Shown here one piece after another: positions 1 through 19,734 of a DNA stretch of 47,723 bases. Source of the stretch: Promethearchaeota archaeon (lineage in GTDB: Archaea; Asgardarchaeota; Lokiarchaeia; Sigyniarchaeales; SOKP01). Made by a program: the position numbers and the translations under genes. Positions within the stretch are counted from its first letter, which is position 1, and every line of letters begins with the position of its first letter. Location of the stretch: NCBI GenBank assembly GCA_048938855.1, contig JBHLLT010000022.1:1-47723 (forward strand), in the 5' to 3' direction. The notes beneath the pieces are model-generated. The model was not told where the DNA came from, did not search any database, and saw only the letters and a list, made by a program, of their open reading frames with translations.

Positions 1-531
1 AGGCTTTCCAGTAATAACTGATGGTGCATGATGACGTACTATATTTTCATACTCATCCATCATCCATGCCATTATTTGAGGATTGGTATAAACATCTGGG
101 GCAGGTACATCTATTGTTGGCCCAATAAAATCAGCTAATCGCCTTATATAGCTTCTAGCGAGCGTTTCAAGTTCTCGATTACTCATCTTTCTTGGATCAC
201 AGATGATTCCACCTTTCGCACCACCTAAGGGAATATCTACACAAGCTGTTTTCCATGTCATCCAAGCGGATAATGCTTTTACTAATGAAGCACTTTCGTC
301 AGGATGCCATCGAATTCCTCCTTTCATAGGACCTCTTGCAGAGTTATATTGAGAGCGAAAACCTTTAAAGGTTTTTATTGTTCCATCATCCATTTTCATG
401 GTGATTTTGATTTCTATGAAGCGTTCAGGCTCACTTAGTGCAGCATAAAGATTGTTATCGTAATCAGCTAATTTACATGCATCAGAAAGTTGTTTTTGAG
501 ATATTTTAAAGGGATCAAGTATTTCACTCAT
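1..531 (-). CDS. gdhA: Glutamate dehydrogenase (Glu/Leu/Phe/Val dehydrogenase family), 5' part; runs off the window edge
   Basis: Not in the ORF track. Manual translation from ATG at 531 gives [15 protein letters not shown]...[21 protein letters not shown]...[18 protein letters not shown]...[21 protein letters not shown]...VITGKP, the canonical GDH motifs. Confidence 0.95.
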
Positions 532-726
532 AGTAATTTCACTTATTTATGCTTTGAAATGAATTTTGTTCAATTTTAAGAATCAATAATAATTTTTTCT
601 GAAGAAATTTTCTTTTTCTTTTTAATTAAATTAAATAATAAATAATTAAATAAAATAATAGCAATAAAAGTTTGCTGTGGGAAAGATCTGGGAAATACTT
701 AAATATTTCTAAATTTTCAACATTTA

Positions 727-3393
727 TTACTCAATAAGAGAAAATTTGTTTCTTAAATATTGATGAATAGCATGTGCACCTCTTTTTCCAGCTCCCATTG
801 CCGAAATGACAGTAGCAGAACCTGAAACTATATCTCCTCCAGCGTAAACTCCTTCTATATTAGTTCTACTATTTTCATCAATTTCAATATAACCCCACTT
901 ATTTAATTTTAAATCAGGTATTGACTTAGTTAAAATAGGATTAGCCATAGTTCCAATACCTAACAATACAGTATCCGTTTCAATTAAAAATTCAGAATTT
1001 TCAATTGGAATTGGTCTACGTCTTCCTGAATCATCTGGTTCACCTAAGCGCATTTTAATGGCCTGAATTTGTTTTATATTTCCCTTCTCATCTCCTATAA
1101 ATTTTATAGGATTTGTTAAGAATTGAAATTCAATCCCTTCTTCTAAAGCATGATGGTATTCTTCTCGTCTAGCAGGCATCTCTAATTCCGATCTCCTATA
1201 AACAACTATTACTCTTTTAGCTCCTAATCGCCTAGCCACTCTTGAAGCGTCAAGAGCGGTATTTCCACCACCAATAACTGTTACAATTTCTCCTACTTTA
1301 ATTGGAGTATCATATTCAGGAAATCTGTAAGCTTTCATTAGATTTGCTCTTGTGAGAAATTCATTTGCAGTTAAAACTCCATTTAAACCTAATCCAGGAA
1401 TTTTAGGAAACATTGGAAGTCCGGCACCTACTCCAATGAAAAAAGCTTCAAATCCCATATCTCGTAAATCTTGAAGAGAAAGAATTTTCCCTATAATTTT
1501 ATTATATTCAATTTTAACATCAAGCATTTTCAAAGTTTCAATTTCTTCTTTGACAATCTTTTTTGGCAATCTGAATTCAGGAATACCGTAAATTAGTACA
1601 CCACCTCCAGCATGGAAAGCTTCAAAAATAGTTACATCGTAACCTTTTCTGGCAAGTTCTCCTGCGCAAGTTAATCCTGCAGGTCCAGAACCTATCACTG
1701 CAACCTTAATATTATTTGGAGCTTTACATTCAGGGCATTCTTTTAGTTGGTTTTCTCTTTCCCAATCAGCAATAAATCTTTCTAAATATCCAATTGCGAT
1801 TGGCTCATCTAATTCATTTAACAAACAGGCGCTTTCACATTGTACTTCTTGAGGACACACTCTCCCACAGACAGCAGGTAGTAAATTATAATCTTTCATA
1901 ACTCTGAGTGCATCAATATATTTTTCTCCTCTTAATAACCTAATAAATCGAGGAATGTCAATATTTACTGGACATCCAGAAACGCATTGTGGTAATCCAC
2001 ATTGTAGACATCTTTTTGATTCTAACTTTACCATTTCTAGAGTTAATCCTTTAGGTACTTCCTGAAAATTATTAACTCTTATCTCAGGTTCTTGTTGGAT
2101 CATTTTTGGTCTCGTTAATTCCTTAAAAAGCTTTTGTTTTGATTTGCTAATTCTGGTTATAATAGTAAAACTTTCACTTTCCTCACTTATTTCTTTAAAA
2201 TTAATTGATTGAAGATTAGCTGCTTTCTTGAATAAATCTGCTCCCTTTTTAGTTCTAATAATAACTGTTGACCATCCTGGTTCTGAACCAATAGAACCTA
2301 CAGAAATATCTGCTTGTTCTGAGGTTAGATCGTCACAAAAAAAGCATCCTAATCTTCCATATGTCTTGAGTTTTTTAACAGGTACACTATAAATAGACTG
2401 ATCTTTATGAAAAGCATAAAACCGTCCTTTATCTATGTCCATATTCTTAATATTATTAGGAGATAATTGAAATTCGGTTTTTAAAAGTTTTTTTATATTT
2501 TCATAGTCAAATGATTCCATGCAAAACAAACCAATTTTTAATGTAATATTATCATAAAAGGGCTTGTTAATTGGATAAAAATCAATTTTCATTAATGCTT
2601 CCATCATGCAGGGTGTGCCAACTATAGCGATATTATTATAATCTTTTGATCTATGTAATAATTTCAAAGAAGGAGAATTAGTATACTTAGTACCTGCTGT
2701 TCTTATTAATTCCTCTTCTCTATCAATTAAGACTGGTAAAGGTTTATGTGGCTCGTCTGAAACACTTACTGCTATAGCAGCATCTATTAATTTTTCCTCA
2801 AACGCTGTTTTAAGTAAAGTTGTAACAATTCCACCATTTTGAGCATGGATTTTTATTTGTTTATCAGTAGTTTTAGCAGAATATATTTTATAATAATGAT
2901 TTATTTGTTCAACAAATTTTGTGTCTAATTCATCTTTCTCTTGGTATTTTTTTAAATTCTTAGGGAAGAATGACCTTGGACAACATGAAAAGCACAATCC
3001 ACAATTGAAACAAAGATCCTTATTAATTTCAAATGTGCCACTTATATAATTAATAGCATGTACAGGGCAAACAGAATCACACAAACCACATCCACAGCAT
3101 AAATTAGTATCTCGTACTATGGAGACGTTGGGAAATAAGCCCGGATGCTCATTTTGTTGTATATATTTATGAAAAAAACGTGATTTTTCTCCCAAAAATT
3201 CTAAAGAGCCTAATTCTTTTAAATATTCAATATTAAAAATCAAATCTCTAATAGGAATCTTTAATTCATTTTTCAATTTTTGGAGATCTAAAGTCCCAAT
3301 CTCTTTAATCTTCTTTAATATTGCTTGTCTTTGATTTTCGGCTTCTTGTATTGAGTTAAGGAAAGTATTAAATTGCGATTTAGTATATCTCAA
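727..3393 (-). CDS. nfnB: Fusion protein: N-terminal wHTH-like region + 2[4Fe-4S] ferredoxin + FrhB/FdhB (F420-binding family) domain + NfnB/SudA (GltD-like) flavoprotein
   Basis: Ferredoxin motifs CCGCGLCDSVCP and CFNCGLCFSCCP. FrhB motifs QNGGIVTTLL, TAGTKY, VGTPC, IGLFCMESF, GCFFCDD, ADISVGSIGS. NfnB motifs RCLQC..CVSGCP, CGRVCPQEVQCE, GSGPAG, GGGNTA, YRRS, AGGDIVSG. The frame stays open upstream to an ATA at 3465. Confidence 0.9.
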   Translation of the reverse strand: MRYTKSQFNTFLNSIQEAENQRQAILKKIKEIGTLDLQKLKNELKIPIRDLIFNIEYLKELGSLEFLGEKSRFFHKYIQQNEHPGLFPNVSIVRDTNLCCGCGLCDSVCPVHAINYISGTFEINKDLCFNCGLCFSCCPRSFFPKNLKKYQEKDELDTKFVEQINHYYKIYSAKTTDKQIKIHAQNGGIVTTLLKTAFEEKLIDAAIAVSVSDEPHKPLPVLIDREEELIRTAGTKYTNSPSLKLLHRSKDYNNIAIVGTPCMMEALMKIDFYPINKPFYDNITLKIGLFCMESFDYENIKKLLKTEFQLSPNNIKNMDIDKGRFYAFHKDQSIYSVPVKKLKTYGRLGCFFCDDLTSEQADISVGSIGSEPGWSTVIIRTKKGADLFKKAANLQSINFKEISEESESFTIITRISKSKQKLFKELTRPKMIQQEPEIRVNNFQEVPKGLTLEMVKLESKRCLQCGLPQCVSGCPVNIDIPRFIRLLRGEKYIDALRVMKDYNLLPAVCGRVCPQEVQCESACLLNELDEPIAIGYLERFIADWERENQLKECPECKAPNNIKVAVIGSGPAGLTCAGELARKGYDVTIFEAFHAGGGVLIYGIPEFRLPKKIVKEEIETLKMLDVKIEYNKIIGKILSLQDLRDMGFEAFFIGVGAGLPMFPKIPGLGLNGVLTANEFLTRANLMKAYRFPEYDTPIKVGEIVTVIGGGNTALDASRVARRLGAKRVIVVYRRSELEMPARREEYHHALEEGIEFQFLTNPIKFIGDEKGNIKQIQAIKMRLGEPDDSGRRRPIPIENSEFLIETDTVLLGIGTMANPILTKSIPDLKLNKWGYIEIDENSRTNIEGVYAGGDIVSGSATVISAMGAGKRGAHAIHQYLRNKFSLIE

Positions 3394-3461
3394 TTGCTGT
3401 AATACTTTATTTTTGTTTTCAGTGAAAATAGTAATTAATGGTGTTTTTTCAATTATTTTAT

Positions 3462-4346
3462 CTATGAAGGTTCACCTTCTAATTTTTTTAATGCTTCACA
3501 TTCATGGGTATATCGATCTAATGATTCTTTTTCTTGATCGAGAAACCTATTAGCACGATTTATGAGATTATCAAAATCTATAATATGAGCATCAACATCA
3601 GGGCCATCTACACAAGCAAAGTATATATCACCGTCTTTTGTAGGAAAACGACACCCTCCGCACATACCAGTGCCATCAATCATAATCGTATTTAATGATA
3701 CATACGTTTTCACCTTGGGTAATCCCTCTATACCACTTGTAGTTAATGCTACATTTTTCATCATTATTAAAGGCCCAATTGCGATAACTAAATCGATCAT
3801 CCGTTTTTTGATTAATTCTTTTAATGGTGAAGTTACAAAACCCTTGATTCCCGCACTTCCATCATTAGTAGTGATTATTATCTCATCACTTACCATACTC
3901 ATTTTATCCTTCCAAAAAATTAGATCTGCGGTTCGAGCGCCTAATATTGATATGATTGTATTCCCTACATTCTTCAATTCCTTTGCTTGAGGATAACAAG
4001 GGGCAATACCTACTCCACCACCAATAATAATTACTGGATTATCATATTTCTTTATATGTATCTTATTTCCTAAAGGCCCAACTACATCTGATATTTCATC
4101 ACCTTCCTCTTGATGAGAAAGTAATAATGTAGATTTTCCTACAACTTGAATTACAAGTGTAATAATTCCTTTTTCTCTGTTGTAATCCGCAATAGTAAGG
4201 GGAATTCTCTCGCCTTTCTCGTTAATCCTAATTAATACAAAATTTCCAGCATATGCTTTTTTAGCAATTAATGGGGCAAAAATATCCATTTCGAATAATG
4301 TGCCACTATCACCAAGCTGAACCTTTTTTATAATTTTATAAGACAA
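3462..4346 (-). CDS. nfnA: NfnA/SudB (PyrK-like FAD, NAD, [2Fe-2S]) small subunit of Nfn transhydrogenase
   Basis: GERIPLTI, GGGVGIAP and MIDGTGMCGGCR...CVDGP motifs (Asp/Cys-ligated 2Fe-2S). Directly upstream of the NfnB-like gene. Confidence 0.9.
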   Translation of the reverse strand: MSYKIIKKVQLGDSGTLFEMDIFAPLIAKKAYAGNFVLIRINEKGERIPLTIADYNREKGIITLVIQVVGKSTLLLSHQEEGDEISDVVGPLGNKIHIKKYDNPVIIIGGGVGIAPCYPQAKELKNVGNTIISILGARTADLIFWKDKMSMVSDEIIITTNDGSAGIKGFVTSPLKELIKKRMIDLVIAIGPLIMMKNVALTTSGIEGLPKVKTYVSLNTIMIDGTGMCGGCRFPTKDGDIYFACVDGPDVDAHIIDFDNLINRANRFLDQEKESLDRYTHECEALKKLEGEPS

Positions 4347-10169: not shown

Positions 10170-10658
10170 CTATCTTTTTTTATTTATTAATTCGGTGAAA
10201 GAGCTGTTTTCTTTAATAACATTTAATACTATATGAGTATTAGTACGTTCAACATAAGGAGATGTATGAATATCTTTTATCATTTTACTTAAATCCTCTC
10301 TATTTTTAAATCTTGCCAAAATGAGAGCATCGTATTCTCCAGTAATGTCATAAACTGCGAATATGTGAGGATTTTTTGCCACATTTTTCTCTACTTCAAG
10401 CATTTTACCTTTTGAAATTGTTAATTCAATTATTGCAATAATATCATAGCCTAGTTTTTCAAAATCAATTTGAACTCCATAATTTTTTATTATTTTGTCC
10501 TTCTCTAAATTTTCAACATGACTTTTAATGGTTACAGGCGATTTATTACCTAGATCTTTTGCTAATTGGCGAAGTGAGATTCGGCCATCTATACTTATTT
10601 TCTTTAGAATCTCAATATCCAGATCAGAAAAATCATAAAAGTTAGATTGTTGAGGCAT
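10170..10658 (-). CDS. Lrp/AsnC family transcriptional regulator
   Basis: DLDIEILKKISIDGRISLRQLA HTH, IDFEKLGY linker and VYDITGEYD RAM motif. Confidence 0.95.
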   Translation of the reverse strand: MPQQSNFYDFSDLDIEILKKISIDGRISLRQLAKDLGNKSPVTIKSHVENLEKDKIIKNYGVQIDFEKLGYDIIAIIELTISKGKMLEVEKNVAKNPHIFAVYDITGEYDALILARFKNREDLSKMIKDIHTSPYVERTNTHIVLNVIKENSSFTELINKKR

Positions 10659-11421: not shown

Positions 11422-12771
11422 ATGATTGATCGAACTGATCCAAAAAGGAAACAGTCATGTGAAGCTGTTATAGAGAAAATTAAAGAAGAAGAAATAAAGT
11501 TAATTTATCTCCAATTCACTGATATTCATGGAATTATTAAGAGTTTCGAAGTAAATTCAAAAAGAATTGAGGATATATTTGAGATAGGGGAAAATTTTGA
11601 CGGAAGCTCGATAACTGGATATGGAGCGATTGAAGAGAGTGATAAGGTTGCACTTCCAGATCCTAGTACATTTTATCTTTTACCTTGGAGAAAAGAAAAT
11701 AAAGTCGCTAGAGTCATTTGTGACATTTTTAAACCTGATGGGCAACGATATGAAGGAGATCCTAGGTTTATTCTGCAGCAAGCAGTAAACAGAGCAGAGA
11801 AACATGGTTATACTTACTATTGTGCTCCAGAAATGGAGTTTTTCGTTCTTACACCTGATACTAAGCAAGCATTCAAACCTTCAGATATGAGAGGATATTT
11901 TGATTACGATCCTTATGATATAAATGAAATGATAAGATATAGGATTGCAGATTATTGTGATGCGATGGGTATTAATGTGGAATGCATTCATCATGAAGTT
12001 GCTTTTGGGCAACATGAGGTTGATTTTAGATATGACAAAGCAGTTAATACAGCTGATAATACATTAACGATTAAAACTATTGTTAAAACAGTTTCAGCTC
12101 AGCATAATTTAATAGGAACTTTTATGCCAAAACCATTTGAGGGAATTAACGGATCTGGAATGCACGTGCACCAATCTCTTTGGAAGAATGGAAATAATGT
12201 CTTTTATGATGAAACTGATAAAGATAATATTTCAATTTTAATGAAAAAATGGATTGCTGGGCAATTAAAATATGCAATTCCTATGTGTGCAGTCTTAAGT
12301 AGTTGGCCTAATTCATATAAAAGATTAGTTCCAGGATATGAAGCACCAGTCTATTTAGCTTGGGGCTTTCGAAATAGATCTCCATTGCTAAGAGTACCAG
12401 ATTTTCATAATAAATCAAGTGCGGCAAGAGTTGAAATACGTTGTCCAGATCCCTCGGGAAATCCATATCTCCAATTTGCAGTACTTTTAAGTTCAGGATT
12501 AGAAGGCATTCTTTCAGAAGATATTAAAATTCCCGAACCAACAGACAGAAATGTATATCATTTATCGTCTAAAGAAATGGAAAAAGAGGGAATTATTTCA
12601 TTACCAGGAAGTTTACATGAAGCTTTACAACATTTCAGAAATTCAGAACTTATGAAAGACATATTTGGAGAATTAGCTTTTAAAAATTACTATTACGCTA
12701 AGCTTGAAGAATATGACGCTTATCGCTTTGTAGTAAGCGAATGGGAAAGAGATAGATATATCAGATTATAA
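11422..12771 (+). CDS. glnA: Glutamine synthetase type I (alpha-like)
   Basis: FDGSSI, PEMEFF, HHEVAFGQHE, FMPKPFEGINGSGMHVHQS, NSYKRLVPGYEAP and RVEIRCPD motifs. Confidence 0.97.
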   Translation: MIDRTDPKRKQSCEAVIEKIKEEEIKLIYLQFTDIHGIIKSFEVNSKRIEDIFEIGENFDGSSITGYGAIEESDKVALPDPSTFYLLPWRKENKVARVICDIFKPDGQRYEGDPRFILQQAVNRAEKHGYTYYCAPEMEFFVLTPDTKQAFKPSDMRGYFDYDPYDINEMIRYRIADYCDAMGINVECIHHEVAFGQHEVDFRYDKAVNTADNTLTIKTIVKTVSAQHNLIGTFMPKPFEGINGSGMHVHQSLWKNGNNVFYDETDKDNISILMKKWIAGQLKYAIPMCAVLSSWPNSYKRLVPGYEAPVYLAWGFRNRSPLLRVPDFHNKSSAARVEIRCPDPSGNPYLQFAVLLSSGLEGILSEDIKIPEPTDRNVYHLSSKEMEKEGIISLPGSLHEALQHFRNSELMKDIFGELAFKNYYYAKLEEYDAYRFVVSEWERDRYIRL

Positions 12772-12849
12772 ACTCAATCATTTATTTCTTTTAAAAATAA
12801 TAATGTGTTTCAATTTTAAACCTATAATTGTATAATATGAATTTGGAAT

Positions 12850-15315
12850 ATGCAAGATATAAAAAAATGGAGATTTTCAATCCCTAGAATAGTTTCACCT
12901 CAAATACCAAAAAGTACAAAATTTAAGTTAACTGAAAAATCTGATTATGTTCATTATGGACAAATAGGATTTGGAGAATATTTTACTCCAGAAAAGTATT
13001 GGACGCCTCAAATTATATCGCAGATCTTATACCAAGCAGAAACAGGAAAAATTCCCGTATCTGGTGCAGGATACGGAGGATCTTTTGCTGGAGAGGGATT
13101 TGATGCTATATGGTTTGACATGTCAGAAATAGTACGCCCTACGAGGGATGGTATTCACGGAAGAGAATATATCTCTACGACTATTGAATTAGGTCAAAAA
13201 GCCTTGAATTTAAATTTTAATAACGAGAATAAATTTTTGAAAAAACTCCCTTCTCTACTAAAACTTCCCTTCCCCATTATCTTTAATCCCATTCCTTTAA
13301 TATCAAAAGACTTCACAAAAATCAAATCTATTATAGAAACGGCATATTCATTAGGTACTATAGCGATTATCCCTCAATCAGAGTATTCAGAAGATTTTTT
13401 ACCATTTTCAAAGGCTGTTTGTTTACGATTGAATAACAAACTGAATCAATTAGAAAAAAAAATGATTCAAAGAGCAACGATGGTTGAGATTGAGGATATT
13501 CATTTAATGAAAAATGTGAAGAAAATTGCTCCTAATATCATTTGTTCAATTTTTCTTCCCGTAGAAGAAGGGATTGAAAATAAGGTATTCTCTCTAATTA
13601 GAAGTGGAATTGATATTATCCACTTGAACTTTGATTTTTATGGAAAAAGTAAAGTAGGAAATATTACTGCAGTTCTTCAAAGAATTCATAATTTTCTCAT
13701 CGAAAACAAAAGTCGCAGTTCTGTTAGCATTATAGTTAGTGGTGGTATAGCAGCTGCAGAGCATGTTGCAAAAGCTATGATTTGTGGAGCTGATTGTGTT
13801 GCAATAGATTTTGTATTATTAATTGCTCTCGGATGTTCATTATGGGCTGATTTATCTTTTCCATGTGTAGCAGAACATGGTGAAATTGATTTGAATTGGG
13901 CCATTAATAGATTAAAAAATCTAATAGCTGCTTGGAGAGATCAACTTCTTGAGGTTCTTGGTGCAATGGGAATTAGAGAAATTAGGAGAATTAGAGGTGA
14001 AGTTGGTAGGGCAATTTTTTATACAGAGGAGAAGGATAATTTTAGAAATTTATTTAAATCAAGAAGGTTAAATTCAAAACTAGGATATTTAGTACCTCTT
14101 GAACAGATAAGTGTTGGAGATTGTCGTTGGCCACTTGAATTAATTCAAGCAACATTTGAGCAAGCTCGTACAGGATTTCTACCAAAACATCTTGAGTATC
14201 GTATAGGTAGAAGTGCAGGAGGGTTTGATCGTCTTGCTTTCATTTTTGAAGATGATGGAATCCAAATGATGGATGATCAATTAATAGATTTATCAATTCC
14301 CTTAAATTTACGCTCCAAAGGGCCAAAGATAACTATTCCGATGCCAGTTTATTCTGGAGGGATGTCTTTTGGTTCGGTATCTCTTAATGTGATGCTTGCA
14401 CGGGCAATGGCAGCTCAAACGCTCGACTCTTTTATGTCTACAGGTGAAGGAGGTTATCCTGAAGAATTAATACCTTATAAAGAACATGTTATTACTCAAG
14501 TTGCTACTGGTCTATTTGGCGTGAGTGAATCTTCAATTCAAAGAGCTCCAATCATAGAATTCAAATACGCTCAAGGAGCAAAACCTGGTTTAGGAGGCCA
14601 TTTACTTGCAGGAAAAGTAACTGAAGCTGTTGCTAATGCTAGAGAATCTGTACCAGGGATAAGCCTATTTTCACCATTCCCCTTTCATAGTGTTTACTCA
14701 GTAGAAGATCATAAGAAACATATTGATTGGATTAAACAGGTGAATCCAGAAGCGTTAGTAATTGTTAAAGTTTCAACTCCTACAGATGTTGATATGGTTG
14801 CAGTTGGTAGTTATTATGCTGGTGCTAATATTGTAAACATTGATGGATCTTATGGCGGTACAGGAGCAGCTCCAGAGGTAAGTAAAAAAAATATAGCAAT
14901 GCCAATAGAATATGCAATACCAAAGGTACATAAATTTCTAACAAAAGAAGGAATAAGAGATGAAATTATCCTTATTGCGTCTGGAGGTATTCGCACCGGA
15001 TATGATATTGCTAAAGCTATTGCTTTAGGTGCAGATGGTGCAATGGTTGGTACAGCAGATTTAGTAGCATTAGGATGCGAGCGACTTGGAGTGTGTGAAA
15101 AGGGAGATGGGTGTCCAGCAGGTATAACTACTACAGATCCTAAATTTGCTTGCTTAATTGATCCTCAGTGGGGTAAAGACCGTATAATAAATCTTCGAAA
15201 GGCATGGGCTATTCAATTACGACAAATATTAAATGCCCTTGGAATGAAAACTATAAAGGAATTAAGAGGAAGGACGGATACACTATTATATCTAAACAAC
15301 AAGGTGTTATTATGA
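12850..15315 (+). CDS. gltB: Glutamate synthase FMN-binding subunit (GltB2-type) with two tandem synthase-like barrels
   Basis: The C-half has MSFGS, STGEGG, QVATG, EFKYAQGAKPGLGGHL, DGSYGGTG, SGGIRTG and a C-x5-C-x5-C cluster motif. The N-half is a degenerate copy (GFDAIW, SGGIAAAEHVAKAMICGAD, ALGC, LGAMGIREIRRIRG). Confidence 0.9.
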   Translation: MQDIKKWRFSIPRIVSPQIPKSTKFKLTEKSDYVHYGQIGFGEYFTPEKYWTPQIISQILYQAETGKIPVSGAGYGGSFAGEGFDAIWFDMSEIVRPTRDGIHGREYISTTIELGQKALNLNFNNENKFLKKLPSLLKLPFPIIFNPIPLISKDFTKIKSIIETAYSLGTIAIIPQSEYSEDFLPFSKAVCLRLNNKLNQLEKKMIQRATMVEIEDIHLMKNVKKIAPNIICSIFLPVEEGIENKVFSLIRSGIDIIHLNFDFYGKSKVGNITAVLQRIHNFLIENKSRSSVSIIVSGGIAAAEHVAKAMICGADCVAIDFVLLIALGCSLWADLSFPCVAEHGEIDLNWAINRLKNLIAAWRDQLLEVLGAMGIREIRRIRGEVGRAIFYTEEKDNFRNLFKSRRLNSKLGYLVPLEQISVGDCRWPLELIQATFEQARTGFLPKHLEYRIGRSAGGFDRLAFIFEDDGIQMMDDQLIDLSIPLNLRSKGPKITIPMPVYSGGMSFGSVSLNVMLARAMAAQTLDSFMSTGEGGYPEELIPYKEHVITQVATGLFGVSESSIQRAPIIEFKYAQGAKPGLGGHLLAGKVTEAVANARESVPGISLFSPFPFHSVYSVEDHKKHIDWIKQVNPEALVIVKVSTPTDVDMVAVGSYYAGANIVNIDGSYGGTGAAPEVSKKNIAMPIEYAIPKVHKFLTKEGIRDEIILIASGGIRTGYDIAKAIALGADGAMVGTADLVALGCERLGVCEKGDGCPAGITTTDPKFACLIDPQWGKDRIINLRKAWAIQLRQILNALGMKTIKELRGRTDTLLYLNNKVLL

Positions 15316-17747
15316 AGGTTATGAAAAAAGATGCTGAAGGAGGATGTGGAGTCGTTGGATTTTGTTCAACTGAGAAAATTGTAGGTAAACATTTAATACC
15401 TCCATGCATCCAAATGCATAATAGGGGAAATGGGAAAGGTGGAGGTATTGTTGCCATGGGTTTAGAAGCTTCTCAACTTAATGTGACAGAAGAGATTCTA
15501 AAAACAAATTATTTAATACAAATTGCTTACCTTAAACCTGATATACGCGAAAAAGTAGAAGCTCAATTTATTTTTAACAATTATGATGTTTTTACTCATT
15601 ACAAAATCAAAACTAAAAATTATAGTTCAAGCAAACTTGAAATAATCCCACCTGAGGTATATAGATATTTTTGTCGTGTAAAAAAGCCAATTCTAAAGAA
15701 ATTCATGAAAAGTAATGGTTTTAAAAATTTCAATAAAGCTGAAGATGAATTTGTATTTTTAATTAGTTTTCAAATAAATAAAAAATTCTATAGTGAAGAT
15801 GATGCTCAAGAAGCATTCGTTTTATGTCATGGAAAAAATATGATCGTTTTTAAGATTGTAGGATATGCTGAAGATGCTATTGATTATTATAATTTAATGG
15901 ATTTAAAAGCTCATCTTTGGGTAGGACATCAAAGATATCCTACCAGAGGAAGAGTCTGGCACCCAGGTGGTGCTCATCCTTTTATAGGGGTGAAAGAAGC
16001 TTTAGTACATAACGGAGACTTTGCAAATTATCATTCCATTTGTGAATATCTTCATCAAAATGGAAGGGAACCATTATTTTCGACAGATACCGAGGTTGCT
16101 GCGTTATTATTTGATCTATGGACAAGAATTTATGATTATCCATTAGAATATGCAATTGAAGCATTTGCACCCACAACTGAAAGAGATTTTGCTATGTTGT
16201 CAACTGAAAAGCAACATATTTATCAACTTATTCAAAGTTATCATGTTCAAAATTCTCCTGATGGTCCTTGGTTTTTTATTATTGCCAGAAACGATGATGT
16301 AGAGGACCAATTCCAATTACTTGGCATAACTGATACATCTATGCTGAGACCACAGGTATTTGCTCTTCAAGAAAACGATAATGTTAAAATTGGTATTATA
16401 GCTTCTGAAAAACAAGCAATTGATTCAATTCTTTCAAGTATTTCCGAGGAGGACAATAGATATTGTTCTATAGCTGACTTATATTGGAATGCTCGTGGAG
16501 GTAGTTATACTGATGGGGGTGCTTTTTTATTTAATTTGAAGAATAATAAATTATCTTGTACAGATAAGTTTGGTAAAAAAATCAAGATTCCAAAAAGAGA
16601 GCCTTTAAAGGTTAAAACTATTAAGGATTACCAATTTGGTCCTGATTTTAATACAATTATCAAGGAATTTGCCAATATGGATTACGGAGAGATATTAGGA
16701 TTTTTAAAATCTGCTGAACTCTATGCTAAAAAAGGAGATTCTCAATTCCAAAAAACTGTGGAGGTTATAACTAAATTAATTGATAGAGTGTATTCAATAG
16801 GAGGCAAAAAAAGGAGTAATCTATTAGCATTATATCATAAAACATTGTATTCAATATTTCGTGGAATTTCAATAGATTCAAAATTGTTTAAATTTTTTAG
16901 TTTACAATCTTCATCTATCCCTATCCCTGATTCAAATAATCAATGTTTAATTATTGACGGTAAGAATTTTTATTCAGAAGGCCCCGAAAGCTTAGCTTCA
17001 GTATTGGTTAAAGCTTTTAATGGTGGGTGGGTGAATTTTATTTTGTTTGATCTTAGAGGACAAAGATTTTGCGGTTGTGGTTTTGGTTCTCATTCAAAAT
17101 CGATTAGAATTGATGTATATGGTTCTCCTGGTGATTATTTAGGATCAGGTATAACCAATACTGAAATTTTGGTGCATTCTAATGGGCAGGATCAATGGGG
17201 CCAAATTATGAAATCTGGAAAACTCGTTGTCTATGGGGATGTTGGTCAAACATTTCTTTATGGCGCTAAAGGAGGCACTTGTTATGTGAGAGGAAATGCT
17301 GCTGGAAGGGCACTTATAAATGCAGTTGGGAATCCTCGCGTCATCATTAATGGAAGTTGTTTAGATTATTTAGCAGAATCTTTTATGGCAGGTGATGTTT
17401 TCCATAATGGTGGATTTGTTATTTTGAATGGAATAAGCTTAAATATAGATGGTATATTAGAAGCGTATCCAGAACCTTATCCAGGAGGAAATCTATTTTC
17501 TCTAGCTTCTGGTGGAGCTATTTATATTCGTGATCCATTCAATAAGACTTCAAAAAGTCAGCTCAATGGAGGTAGCTTTGCCATTCTTTCAAGTCAAGAT
17601 TGGAATCTCATTAAACCTTACCTAGAAGAAAATGAAAGGTTATTCGGCATTAAAATTGATGATTTATTGACCGTAAACAATCAATTAAAGACTCCAAAGG
17701 AGGTATATAGAAAAATTGTTGTTGAAAGCACAGAGGTTTTAAAATGA
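15312..17747 (+). CDS. gltB: Glutamate synthase amidotransferase (class II/Ntn, GltB1) fused to the GXGXG beta-helix domain (GltB3)
   Basis: Start revised to ATG 15312, which has an AAGGTG RBS and an ATGA overlap with the upstream stop. Motifs EGGCGVVG (Ntn Cys), HQRYPT, HPF, VHNGD, TDTEV, LRP, IASE. The C-terminus has GxGxG repeats (GSPGDYLGSG, GAKGG, GGAIYIR). Confidence 0.9.
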   Translation: MKVMKKDAEGGCGVVGFCSTEKIVGKHLIPPCIQMHNRGNGKGGGIVAMGLEASQLNVTEEILKTNYLIQIAYLKPDIREKVEAQFIFNNYDVFTHYKIKTKNYSSSKLEIIPPEVYRYFCRVKKPILKKFMKSNGFKNFNKAEDEFVFLISFQINKKFYSEDDAQEAFVLCHGKNMIVFKIVGYAEDAIDYYNLMDLKAHLWVGHQRYPTRGRVWHPGGAHPFIGVKEALVHNGDFANYHSICEYLHQNGREPLFSTDTEVAALLFDLWTRIYDYPLEYAIEAFAPTTERDFAMLSTEKQHIYQLIQSYHVQNSPDGPWFFIIARNDDVEDQFQLLGITDTSMLRPQVFALQENDNVKIGIIASEKQAIDSILSSISEEDNRYCSIADLYWNARGGSYTDGGAFLFNLKNNKLSCTDKFGKKIKIPKREPLKVKTIKDYQFGPDFNTIIKEFANMDYGEILGFLKSAELYAKKGDSQFQKTVEVITKLIDRVYSIGGKKRSNLLALYHKTLYSIFRGISIDSKLFKFFSLQSSSIPIPDSNNQCLIIDGKNFYSEGPESLASVLVKAFNGGWVNFILFDLRGQRFCGCGFGSHSKSIRIDVYGSPGDYLGSGITNTEILVHSNGQDQWGQIMKSGKLVVYGDVGQTFLYGAKGGTCYVRGNAAGRALINAVGNPRVIINGSCLDYLAESFMAGDVFHNGGFVILNGISLNIDGILEAYPEPYPGGNLFSLASGGAIYIRDPFNKTSKSQLNGGSFAILSSQDWNLIKPYLEENERLFGIKIDDLLTVNNQLKTPKEVYRKIVVESTEVLK

Positions 17748-18535
17748 ATATAATTGTATGCTTAAAACAAGTACCTGATACTGATGAAGTAAAAACTGAT
17801 CCAGAAACAGGTCGAATTATTCGAGAAGGAATAGCAGGTACTATAAATCCTTTCGATATGTTTGTCCTTGAAGAAGCTTTAAGATTAAAGGAGATTTATG
17901 GGGGAAAAATTTCTTTACTAAGTATGGGGCCAAAAGATGCGATGAACACCCTTTATTTTGGATTAGCTTTAGGTGCTGATGAAGCATATTTATTATCAGA
18001 TATTAAATTTGCGGGATCGGACACATTGGCTACATCCTACGCCCTTTCCTGTGGTATAAAGACTCTTGGTCATTATGATTTAATTATTTGCGGAATAAAA
18101 ACTACTGATGGAGACACAGGCCAAGTAGGGGCAAATTTAGCAGAAATACTTGACATCCCTAGTGTTTATTATGTCAATAAGATACTAAAATATCAAAATA
18201 ATAATATTGAAGTTGAAAGACTTTTAGAAGATAGAAGTCAAATTTTACAAGTTTCTCTCCCTTGTCTTATTTCAATTGTTAAGGGCGCTAACATACCTCG
18301 AATGCCTACTTTACTCGGAAAGATTGAAGCTAAGAAAAAATTATTGAAAATACTTAATGCTTATGAAGTCGATGCTATAGAAGATTATTGTGGCTCCGAA
18401 GGCTCCCCTACTAGAGTAGTGAAGGTATTTCTTCCAGAAAAAAGAAAACAGGGAGTAATTGTAAAAGGTTGTTTTGATCAAAATATCATTAAATTGTTAC
18501 AATTTTTAAAAAATAAGAAAATGGTGTCATTCTAA
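17744..18535 (+). CDS. etfB: Electron transfer flavoprotein beta subunit (FixA/EtfB)
   Basis: CLKQVPDT, INPFD, SMGP, FAGSDTLAT and DGDTGQVG motifs. ATGA overlap with the preceding gene. Confidence 0.95.
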   Translation: MNIIVCLKQVPDTDEVKTDPETGRIIREGIAGTINPFDMFVLEEALRLKEIYGGKISLLSMGPKDAMNTLYFGLALGADEAYLLSDIKFAGSDTLATSYALSCGIKTLGHYDLIICGIKTTDGDTGQVGANLAEILDIPSVYYVNKILKYQNNNIEVERLLEDRSQILQVSLPCLISIVKGANIPRMPTLLGKIEAKKKLLKILNAYEVDAIEDYCGSEGSPTRVVKVFLPEKRKQGVIVKGCFDQNIIKLLQFLKNKKMVSF

Positions 18536-19734
18536 TGATTCACATTGATCAAGATAAATGCATTGGATGTGGTGAGTGTGTTGAAGCATGTATGTTTGGT
18601 TCATTATCTCTTAAAACCAATATTCCCTCAATTTCTGAGGATTGCCGCTTGTGTGGAGCATGTGCCAGAATCTGCCGCTATAATGCCATCATCATTAAGC
18701 GAAAAAAAAAGAAGAAAACTATTGACTGGAAAGGTGTTCTCATTTTTGGGGAGCAACGTGATGGAGTACTTTTAGAAGTTGTATATGAGTTATTAAGTAA
18801 GGGTAAAAAATTAGCTGATAAACTTAATGAGTCACTTTTATGTGTTGTATTAGGAAATTCAGTAAAAGGGATCAATGATTTAAAGTCTTATGGGGTAGAT
18901 GAGATACATTGTTTTAATGATCATAGCCTCAAGATGTTTAATTGTGAAATATATTCACAGATAATTTCAAATTTCGTTAAAGACATAAAACCAAGTATTT
19001 TTTTAATAGGAGCAACCTCAATTGGTCGAGAATTAGGCCCTAGAATAGCTGCAAAACTCAAAACTGGATTAACCGCAGATTGTACTGAACTAGAGATAAA
19101 TAAGGAAGGATTATTACTACAAACTAGACCTGCATTTGGTGGAAATATCATGGCATCTATAATATGCCCATCTTCAAGACCACAAATGGCTACTGTACGC
19201 CCAAAAGTCATGAAAATTGTGGAGAACAAAAATGATAAAGGCCGATTAATTAATCATCATGTAAATTCCGAGTTTGTAAAATCAAGAATTGAAACATTAA
19301 GAGAAAGGAAATACAATAATCACTGTAATATTGAAAATGCTGATATTATAGTTTCGGGAGGATTAGGGTTAGGTAAAAAAGAAGGTTTTATTTTATTGCA
19401 AGAACTTGCAGATGAATTAAACGGAGTAATTGCCGCAAGTAGACCTGCTGTTGATGCTGGATGGGCTGATCCAACGGTTCAAGTTGGAATGTCTGGTAAA
19501 GTTGTTCAACCTCATTTATATATTGCCTGTGGAATTTCTGGAGCTGTACAACATCGAGTTGGTATGGAAACTTCTGATGTAATTGTTGCTATAAATAAAG
19601 ATGAACGAGCTCCTATTTTTGACATTGCAGATTTTGGCATAGTAGCTGATTTGTATGATTTTCTTCCAAAATTTATCCATAATCTTAAAAAAAATAAAAA
19701 CGATCTTATTGTTTCCCTGAAAAAAAGTAGATAA
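18535..19734 (+). CDS. etfA: Electron transfer flavoprotein alpha subunit with an N-terminal 2[4Fe-4S] ferredoxin domain
   Basis: CIGCGECVEAC and CRLCGACARIC clusters, then GLTADCT, RPAFGGN, RPQMATVRP, SRPAVDAGW, QVGMSG and GISGAVQH. TAATG overlap with etfB. Confidence 0.95.
   Translation: MIHIDQDKCIGCGECVEACMFGSLSLKTNIPSISEDCRLCGACARICRYNAIIIKRKKKKKTIDWKGVLIFGEQRDGVLLEVVYELLSKGKKLADKLNESLLCVVLGNSVKGINDLKSYGVDEIHCFNDHSLKMFNCEIYSQIISNFVKDIKPSIFLIGATSIGRELGPRIAAKLKTGLTADCTELEINKEGLLLQTRPAFGGNIMASIICPSSRPQMATVRPKVMKIVENKNDKGRLINHHVNSEFVKSRIETLRERKYNNHCNIENADIIVSGGLGLGKKEGFILLQELADELNGVIAASRPAVDAGWADPTVQVGMSGKVVQPHLYIACGISGAVQHRVGMETSDVIVAINKDERAPIFDIADFGIVADLYDFLPKFIHNLKKNKNDLIVSLKKSR

Follow-up and report, generated by a model that had tools for sequence, protein, structure and literature searches.

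A Promethearchaeota NfnB Fused to an FrhB-Family Module as a Candidate F420-Coupled Variant of NfnAB

The nfnA Locus and Its Fused Gene

We analyzed a stretch of 47,723 nucleotides from a Promethearchaeota archaeon (contig JBHLLT010000022.1 of assembly GCA_048938855.1, positions 1 to 47,723; hereafter the window), the first 4.35 kb of which carry three co-oriented genes on the minus strand: nfnA, a gene in which an FrhB-type module is fused to NfnB, and gdhA. The small Nfn subunit, with FAD, a [2Fe-2S] cluster, and an NAD(H) site, is encoded by nfnA (3462..4346; 294 amino acids, TTG start), which lies directly upstream of the fused gene (727..3456). The latter encodes a protein of about 909 amino acids with a helix-turn-helix (HTH)-like domain, a ferredoxin-like domain with two [4Fe-4S] clusters, an FrhB domain, and an NfnB module. 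It is followed by an AT-rich spacer of 195 nt and then by the N-terminal 177 codons of gdhA (1..531), recognized from the open reading frame (ORF), a family match, and the conserved neighborhood; gdhA is cut off by the assembly, as the window begins at the end of the contig.

An NfnB Module with an NfnA Partner

The C-terminal half of the fused protein is an NfnB module (727..2079), identified from PDB sequences, Foldseek, and TIGR01316. It comprises a Fer4_20 domain with two [4Fe-4S] clusters (residues 439-549, 130.7 bits; Pfam residue numbers refer to the 888-aa ORF read from TTG) and FAD- and NADPH-binding Rossmann domains (Pyr_redox_2, residues 563-869, 133.4 bits) with the motifs GSGPAG, GGGNTA, and YRR. 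Among PDB sequences, this half matches Thermotoga maritima NfnB (4ylf_B) with 579 bits and Pyrococcus furiosus NfnI-L with 526 bits, compared with about 270 bits for genuine GltD. An AF2 model of the whole chain (pLDDT 85, pTM 0.79) superposes in Foldseek on 4ylf_B with a TMt of 0.91 and 57% identity, and its pTM suggests a defined arrangement of the domains; predicted docking of residues 100-444 against residues 445-909 gave a score of 0.02, which carries no weight either way. The cluster cysteines of the module and its GSGPAG, GGGNTA (GGGN), and YRR motifs are invariant or nearly so in 87 full-length homologs.

The adjoining NfnA scores 359.6 bits against NF004862 (cut-off 220), contains the cluster motif DGTGMCGGCR, and keeps its FAD and [2Fe-2S] features. 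Its matches in the PDB are the small subunit of P. furiosus NfnI (5jca_S, 300 bits) and T. maritima NfnA (4ylf_A, 260 bits), with the Xfn small subunit at 158 bits. Both marks of NfnAB are thus found at the locus: the NfnB set of domains and motifs, and an NfnA partner next to it. A Fer4_20/NfnB search of the genome returned the fused gene as the only strong NfnB-type match. In databases the protein is named an NADPH-dependent glutamate synthase because it exceeds the cut-off of TIGR01316 ("gltA"/NADPH-dependent glutamate synthase; 572.7 bits, cut-off 471.75), and this naming is a systematic mis-annotation.

Ferredoxin-Like and FrhB Domains

The N-terminal half carries a ferredoxin-like domain (2971..3120; Fer4_9/Fer4_10, Fer4 dicluster, residues 92-141) with two CxxCxxCxxxCP motifs; 8riu_B and the sulfite reductase Fsr (7np8) have ferredoxin domains that align with it, and its eight cysteines are all invariant in the 87 homologs. 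It is followed by an FrhB-type flavoprotein domain (2182..2886) with FAD, one [4Fe-4S] cluster, and a presumed F420 site, for which both Pfam models score far above their gathering thresholds (FrhB_N, residues 170-246, 79.6 bits against 22; FrhB_C, residues 253-404, 150.6 bits against 23.3). With the FrhB models of NCBIfam it stays just under the cut-offs (261 against 269; 226 against 331.5), and the domain is a member of the FrhB family and not an FrhB equivalog. A partly helical linker (2080..2181), supported by Pfam, the AF2 model, and the bridging contigs described below, joins it to NfnB.

The best matches of the N-terminal half among solved structures are 8riu_B (188 bits) and 8rja_E (165 bits); authentic FrhB scores 176-170 bits (6qgr_B, 176 bits; 3zfs_C), Fsr about 150 bits, and the ferredoxin-dependent family member HCAR (5dqr) only 39.6 bits. 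The FAD-binding loops of Methanothermobacter marburgensis FrhB are QDGG, G73-T77, and I132-F138 (PMC3930138). In the fused protein the FAD loops QxGG (QNGG), GTxY (GTKY), and GLFCME (GLFCMES), as well as the [4Fe-4S] ligand motif PC...C...CxxC, are invariant or nearly so across the 87 homologs, and in the alignment with genuine FrhB there are hardly any gaps in the loops and the lid region; a domain devoid of FAD, which the original prediction had listed among the findings that would overturn it, is not what we see. Given that its nearest relatives react with F420 and that the host encodes cofGHDE, the domain is presumed to exchange hydride with F420. In one fused ortholog (L021:2538-5030; G040:C36) the FrhB domain, in a frame of 864 codons, is shorter by some 50 residues and only 44% identical; in this copy the F420 module may be degenerating.

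The N-Terminal Domain and the Start Codon

Residues 1 to about 100 (3157..3456) form a helical, HTH-like domain, which AF2 models with a pLDDT of 87 and with helices only. Residues 1-95 gave no match in Pfam. In Foldseek searches of the PDB, a core of 44-46 residues fits the HTH domains of Lrp/AsnC, Z-alpha, and FtsK-gamma proteins to about 1 Angstrom, all at E>1 and hence without statistical support, and the model has no predicted wing strand; beyond a three-helix HTH-like core, the label of a winged helix is weakly supported. The domain is not specific to the fusion, as it is also found in free-standing FrhB paralogs of 500 aa. To one of these, in the same genome (L027:3031-4533), the whole N-terminal module (HTH-like, ferredoxin-like, and FrhB domains) is 40% identical end to end over 500 aa. 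It is the closest free-standing paralog of the module, and in the region L027:1126-5657 (G000 contig C20) it is flanked by a 442-aa protein with multiple [4Fe-4S] motifs and by a second FrhB paralog of 369 aa.

The fused frame is open over 914 codons, and read from its first canonical start, a TTG at 3393, it encodes 888 aa (727-3393). The 21 residues upstream of this TTG are conserved with homologs, and at the homologous start an ATG preceded by a GGAGG-like box is present in 10 of 10 readable related loci (the eleventh, L006, reads N). As the upstream residues are conserved and relatives have the ATG, the true N-terminus probably lies upstream of the TTG, giving about 909 aa. In the source genome the corresponding codon, 5 nt from the nfnA stop, is ATA (3456-3454), and for contigs from two studies that cover the start site no difference from ATA is listed. 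The closest relative has an ATG also at a second position, that of the in-frame TTG 21 codons downstream. The start may therefore be noncanonical or lost, with a predicted product of about 909 aa if ATA initiates and of 888 aa from TTG. The original prediction of nfnA, a protein of winged helix, two [4Fe-4S] clusters, FrhB, and NfnB, and gdhA on one strand thus stands in its layout and domains, as borne out by the ORFs and Pfam, with the winged helix poorly backed and the N-terminus moved 21 codons upstream.

Distribution and Origin of the Fusion

The same architecture, with FrhB fused to Fer4_20 and Pyr_redox_2, was found in more than 100 protein-cluster representatives of about 905-935 aa and 57-84% identity, named as Promethearchaeota, Lokiarchaeota, or Hermodarchaeota where they have names; the search for this domain combination that had been proposed as a check is thereby answered. 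The FrhB/NfnB junction (2080-2181) is spanned by contigs from the runs of three studies (X1 record 4, 1238-2798; X4 record 18; X12 record 11), the samples being sediment and mangrove, and X1 is possibly the sample from which the source genome came. With more than 100 clusters sharing the architecture and the junction covered by contigs of several independent studies, the fusion is not a product of misassembly, and the chimera considered at the outset can be set aside. Loose contig ends and an apparent 2012-nt "joint" at 2287-2319 were considered as signs of rearrangement and rejected: they fall on the most conserved FrhB motif, with sides of only 21 nt, and we read them as contigs of paralogs.

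Among 301 Asgard genomes, the full-length fusion is restricted to the family of the source genome, and other families have unfused NfnB only, at about 53-61% identity. A search with the junction region against 1.84 billion representatives clustered at 50% identity returned exactly one that spans FrhB and Fer4_20. The closest relatives of the fused protein are 87% identical and conserve all ligands, and the range of 57-87% identity over many species, with all cofactor ligands in place, indicates purifying selection on the fusion. Some genomes of the family (G282, G276, G216, G077, and G141) encode two fused copies, which in G282 stand in tandem (L011, G282:C211:65363-70789).

Phylogenetic analysis of the FrhB domain placed the fused N-terminal modules and truncated fragments in one clade with support of 100, with free-standing paralogs of about 500 aa, including that of the source genome itself, as its sister; this indicates a single fusion event. 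In the tree of the NfnB domain, fused and unfused sequences are intermixed, and the starred branches force at least four changes. The intermixing would mean either that the module was lost repeatedly or that paralogs underwent gene conversion, and conversion between the two copies could blur this tree.

The gdh Neighborhood and Other Genes of the Window

The order nfnA, fusion, gdh is found in 9 of 11 related loci. Unfused loci of the same family for which a downstream flank was available have nfnA, plain nfnB, and gdh in five of six cases, and the sixth (L025) has a distant gdh-like match only. Since this locus in sister species reads nfnA-nfnB-gdh with no fusion, gdh is linked to Nfn and not to the F420 module: the association is a property of Nfn and NADP(H) that is older than the fusion, with the F420 module as an accessory add-on. 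As a role of the F420 module, the proposed service to glutamate dehydrogenase (GDH) is therefore not supported. A full-length GDH ortholog (L002) is of the Thermococcales type (Thermococcus profundus GDH, 1euz, 535 bits), and from this likeness the GDH is probably NADP-linked. Cotranscription of gdh with the fused gene is putative.

On the plus strand, positions 11422-19734 of the window encode a glutamine synthetase (GS) followed by pieces of a glutamate synthase (GOGAT) large subunit in permuted order, with an ORF for the central and FMN domains (12850-15315) preceding one for the GATase and GXGXG domains (15204-17747), the two overlapping by 112 nt. Tightly coupled genes for etfB and an etfA with a ferredoxin domain follow, and the cluster may represent an Etf-linked archaeal GOGAT. 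An Lrp/AsnC regulator is encoded at 10170-10658.

F420 Metabolism of the Host

Each of cofG, cofH, cofD, and cofE scores above its curated cut-off in the host genome, and the F420-dependent Mtd is present, so that the host is predicted to make F420 and the absence of a biosynthetic pathway, a further way in which the initial proposal might have failed, does not apply. Four Mer-like LLM proteins fall below the Mer cut-off. FrhB_C matches number 14 in the genome, a large family of paralogs.

None of 101 genomes of the family encodes an Fno (TIGR01915) above cut-off, and the fused protein itself is unrelated to Fno. A 213-aa Fno-like protein (L030:717-1358, G000 contig C85) scores 68 bits against PF03807 and 96 bits against TIGR01915 (cut-off 149.8). 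Its gene is found mostly in two genera (27/30 and 4/6 genomes) and just once in each of two more (1/31 in g4), and across the family genomes it showed no complementarity with the fusion: it coexists with fused and unfused forms and follows genus lines. The source genome also encodes an 822-aa protein (L029:1847-4315, G000 contig C24) in which a GltD-type module (Fer4_20 and Pyr_redox_2) is placed between FrhB_N and FrhB_C, adjoining a 470-aa protein with a domain like the small subunit of [NiFe]-hydrogenases. This second, independent fusion of FrhB with a GltD-type module in one genome suggests F420-NAD(P)H coupling as a recurring theme.

A Predicted F420-Coupled NfnAB and Its Alternatives

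We consider it probable, though by no means settled, that nfnA and the fused gene encode an F420-coupled variant of NfnAB, in which an F420 oxidoreductase module, covalently attached, would prolong the low-potential arm; the interpretation given in the original prediction is thus partly supported. The N-terminal two-cluster domain of NfnB is the end at which electrons are passed to ferredoxin, and it is to the N-terminus of this domain that the module is joined. The cofactor inventory and its order are observed in the sequence, and along them we infer the following path. Electrons of NADP(H) would enter at the bifurcating FAD of NfnB and pass through the two NfnB clusters to the two clusters of the fused ferredoxin-like domain and on to the FrhB cluster, from which they would reach the FrhB FAD for hydride exchange with F420, while the NfnA branch would still reach NAD(H). 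Along such a path the enzyme would couple NADP(H), NAD(H), and F420(H2), with the fused ferredoxin-like domain occupying, or competing for, the docking place of free ferredoxin. The thermodynamically easy direction would be 2 NADPH + NAD+ + F420 -> 2 NADP+ + NADH + F420H2. This could supply F420H2 to Mtd and the Mer-like enzymes by a hydrogenase-independent route, and the conserved gdh neighbor would point to traffic of NADP(H) with GDH. A precedent is offered by "Candidatus Ethanoperedens," in which F420-reductase subunits replace ferredoxin reduction on CODH and Fwd (preprint 10.1101/2024.01.23.576903).

Several points weigh against this reading. The N-terminal module was apparently lost several times in close relatives that keep plain nfnAB-gdh, and would thus be dispensable. 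No FrhB structure with bound substrate defines the F420 site, so there are no binding residues for comparison, and F420 binding by the fused protein is a prediction. The ATA start makes translation of the extreme N-terminus uncertain for the copy in the source genome. Finally, the midpoint potential of F420 (E0' about -340 to -350 mV) lies about 100-150 mV above that of ferredoxin, and as F420 is so much less negative, bifurcation would be energetically unnecessary: the conversion of NADPH to NADH and F420H2 is downhill. Three modes of action are candidates: a reaction that couples three carriers, a plain NADPH:F420 oxidoreductase, and a four-carrier hub.

The second of these modes would make the complex a simple, nonbifurcating enzyme that does the job of Fno through the NfnB FAD, the cluster chain, and the FrhB FAD, with NfnA being structural or a parallel entry for NADH without energetic coupling. 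The closeness of the F420 and NAD(P) potentials, which does not require bifurcation, the lack of a canonical Fno in the 101 family genomes, and the example of P. furiosus Xfn (5vj7), an Nfn-like pair that has lost the NAD reaction, all fit such an enzyme; we nevertheless hold it unlikely, as NfnA is far nearer to the bifurcating NfnI-S than to the Xfn small subunit (300 against 158 bits), the NfnB part and the T. maritima enzyme, which bifurcates, share 57% identity, and the subthreshold Fno-like gene occurs together with the fusion in the same genus. Doubtful as well is a module that makes no use of F420, whether as an adaptor that would dock the Nfn core, through its HTH-like and ferredoxin-like domains, on for example HdrA/MvhD-type modules, or as an enzyme for another substrate as in HCAR and BciB. 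Here the end-to-end identity of 40% with the free-standing 500-aa FrhB paralogs, the sister group of the module, has to be taken into account together with the use of ferredoxin in place of F420 by some family members (HCAR, 5dqr); however, the F420-reactive members match far better than HCAR (176-188 against 39.6 bits), the match to genuine FrhB is nearly gap-free over the FAD loops and lid region, and the host makes F420 according to its gene content.

The database name would cast the protein as the GltD-like electron-input subunit of an F420-dependent glutamate synthase, which we regard as improbable. Besides the TIGR01316 score, genes for GS and the GOGAT large subunit lie about 8-14 kb away in the window, and putative F420-dependent glutamate synthases (FGltS) with FrhB-family subunits have been proposed (PMC3448663; PMC9012536). 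However, the latter pair their FrhB-family subunits with a large, GltB-type subunit and not with a GltD-type module (PMC3448663), the partner adjoining the fused gene is NfnA and not GltB, the likeness to NfnB (579 bits) greatly exceeds that to GltD (about 270 bits), and the GOGAT genes are on the opposite strand, coupled to their own etfBA. That the gene is an assembly chimera, or is decaying in the source genome, is scarcely credible: the mutation of its start from ATG to ATA would fit decay, but the long frame is open throughout, every ligand is kept in the closest relatives, at 87% identity, the junction is bridged in several studies, and the gene is the only NfnB of the genome.

On the F420-coupled reading of NfnAB, a further and distinctly more tentative possibility is a new class of bifurcating or confurcating transhydrogenase, in which F420, reached through a third FAD, replaces ferredoxin or joins a hub of NADPH, NADH, F420, and ferredoxin. 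Such an enzyme would set, independently of hydrogenase and from NADPH derived from amino acids, the F420H2 pool for the tetrahydromethanopterin (H4MPT)-dependent Wood-Ljungdahl pathway. Asgard archaea have many FrhB paralogs and F420-dependent C1 enzymes, and to our knowledge no F420-reducing hydrogenase. The link of their F420 pool to NAD(P)H and ferredoxin is a gap in models of syntrophic metabolism, for which the Nfn-FrhB fusion is a direct candidate. If the reading is correct, the repertoire of Nfn-type bifurcation gains a third flavin together with a hydride carrier that is new to it; sister species, which have the gene fused or unfused at one and the same locus, offer a natural pair for biochemical comparison.

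Comparison with Known Systems

A literature search, which was not exhaustive, brought up no description of an FrhB-NfnB fusion; what it did yield were HdrA-NfnB/GltD fusions, putative FGltS, and the F420-reductase modules of Ethanoperedens. With NfnAB of T. maritima the system shares the two-gene layout, the FAD and [2Fe-2S] cluster of NfnA, and the two [4Fe-4S] clusters, FAD, and NADPH site of NfnB; it differs in about 445 additional N-terminal residues of the large subunit (HTH-like domain, two [4Fe-4S] clusters, and FrhB with a third FAD), and F420 probably replaces or joins free ferredoxin. The HdrA-NfnB/GltD fusions of ANME-1 and Bathyarchaeia (HdrA9-11; "type III HdrA") likewise join an NAD(P)H module of the NfnB/GltD type to a flavin and iron-sulfur protein at the site that interacts with ferredoxin, but their partner is HdrA instead of FrhB, they have no NfnA, and they occur in other lineages. 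Fno would catalyze the same predicted net chemistry between F420 and NADP(H), yet it is a small Rossmann enzyme that contains no cofactor and transfers hydride directly, and soluble FpoF also links F420 to iron-sulfur or ferredoxin carriers but has no NAD(P) module.

Two other systems share the architecture of the N-terminal half. Fsr, the F420H2-dependent sulfite reductase (7NP8/7NPA), is a single chain in which an N-terminal F420H2 oxidase with two [4Fe-4S] clusters and an FrhB-type domain passes electrons along a relay of clusters to a catalytic module at the C-terminus, this module being a siroheme sulfite reductase and not an NAD(P)H flavoprotein. The ferredoxin-domain and FrhB-domain layout is also that of the CODH/ACDS zeta subunit (8RIU_B) and FwdI (8RJA_E) of "Candidatus Ethanoperedens thermophilum," where the module sends to F420 the electrons of an enzyme that normally works with ferredoxin; it forms a subunit of its own there, on CODH or Fwd, whereas here it is fused in one chain to NfnB and bears an additional HTH-like domain.

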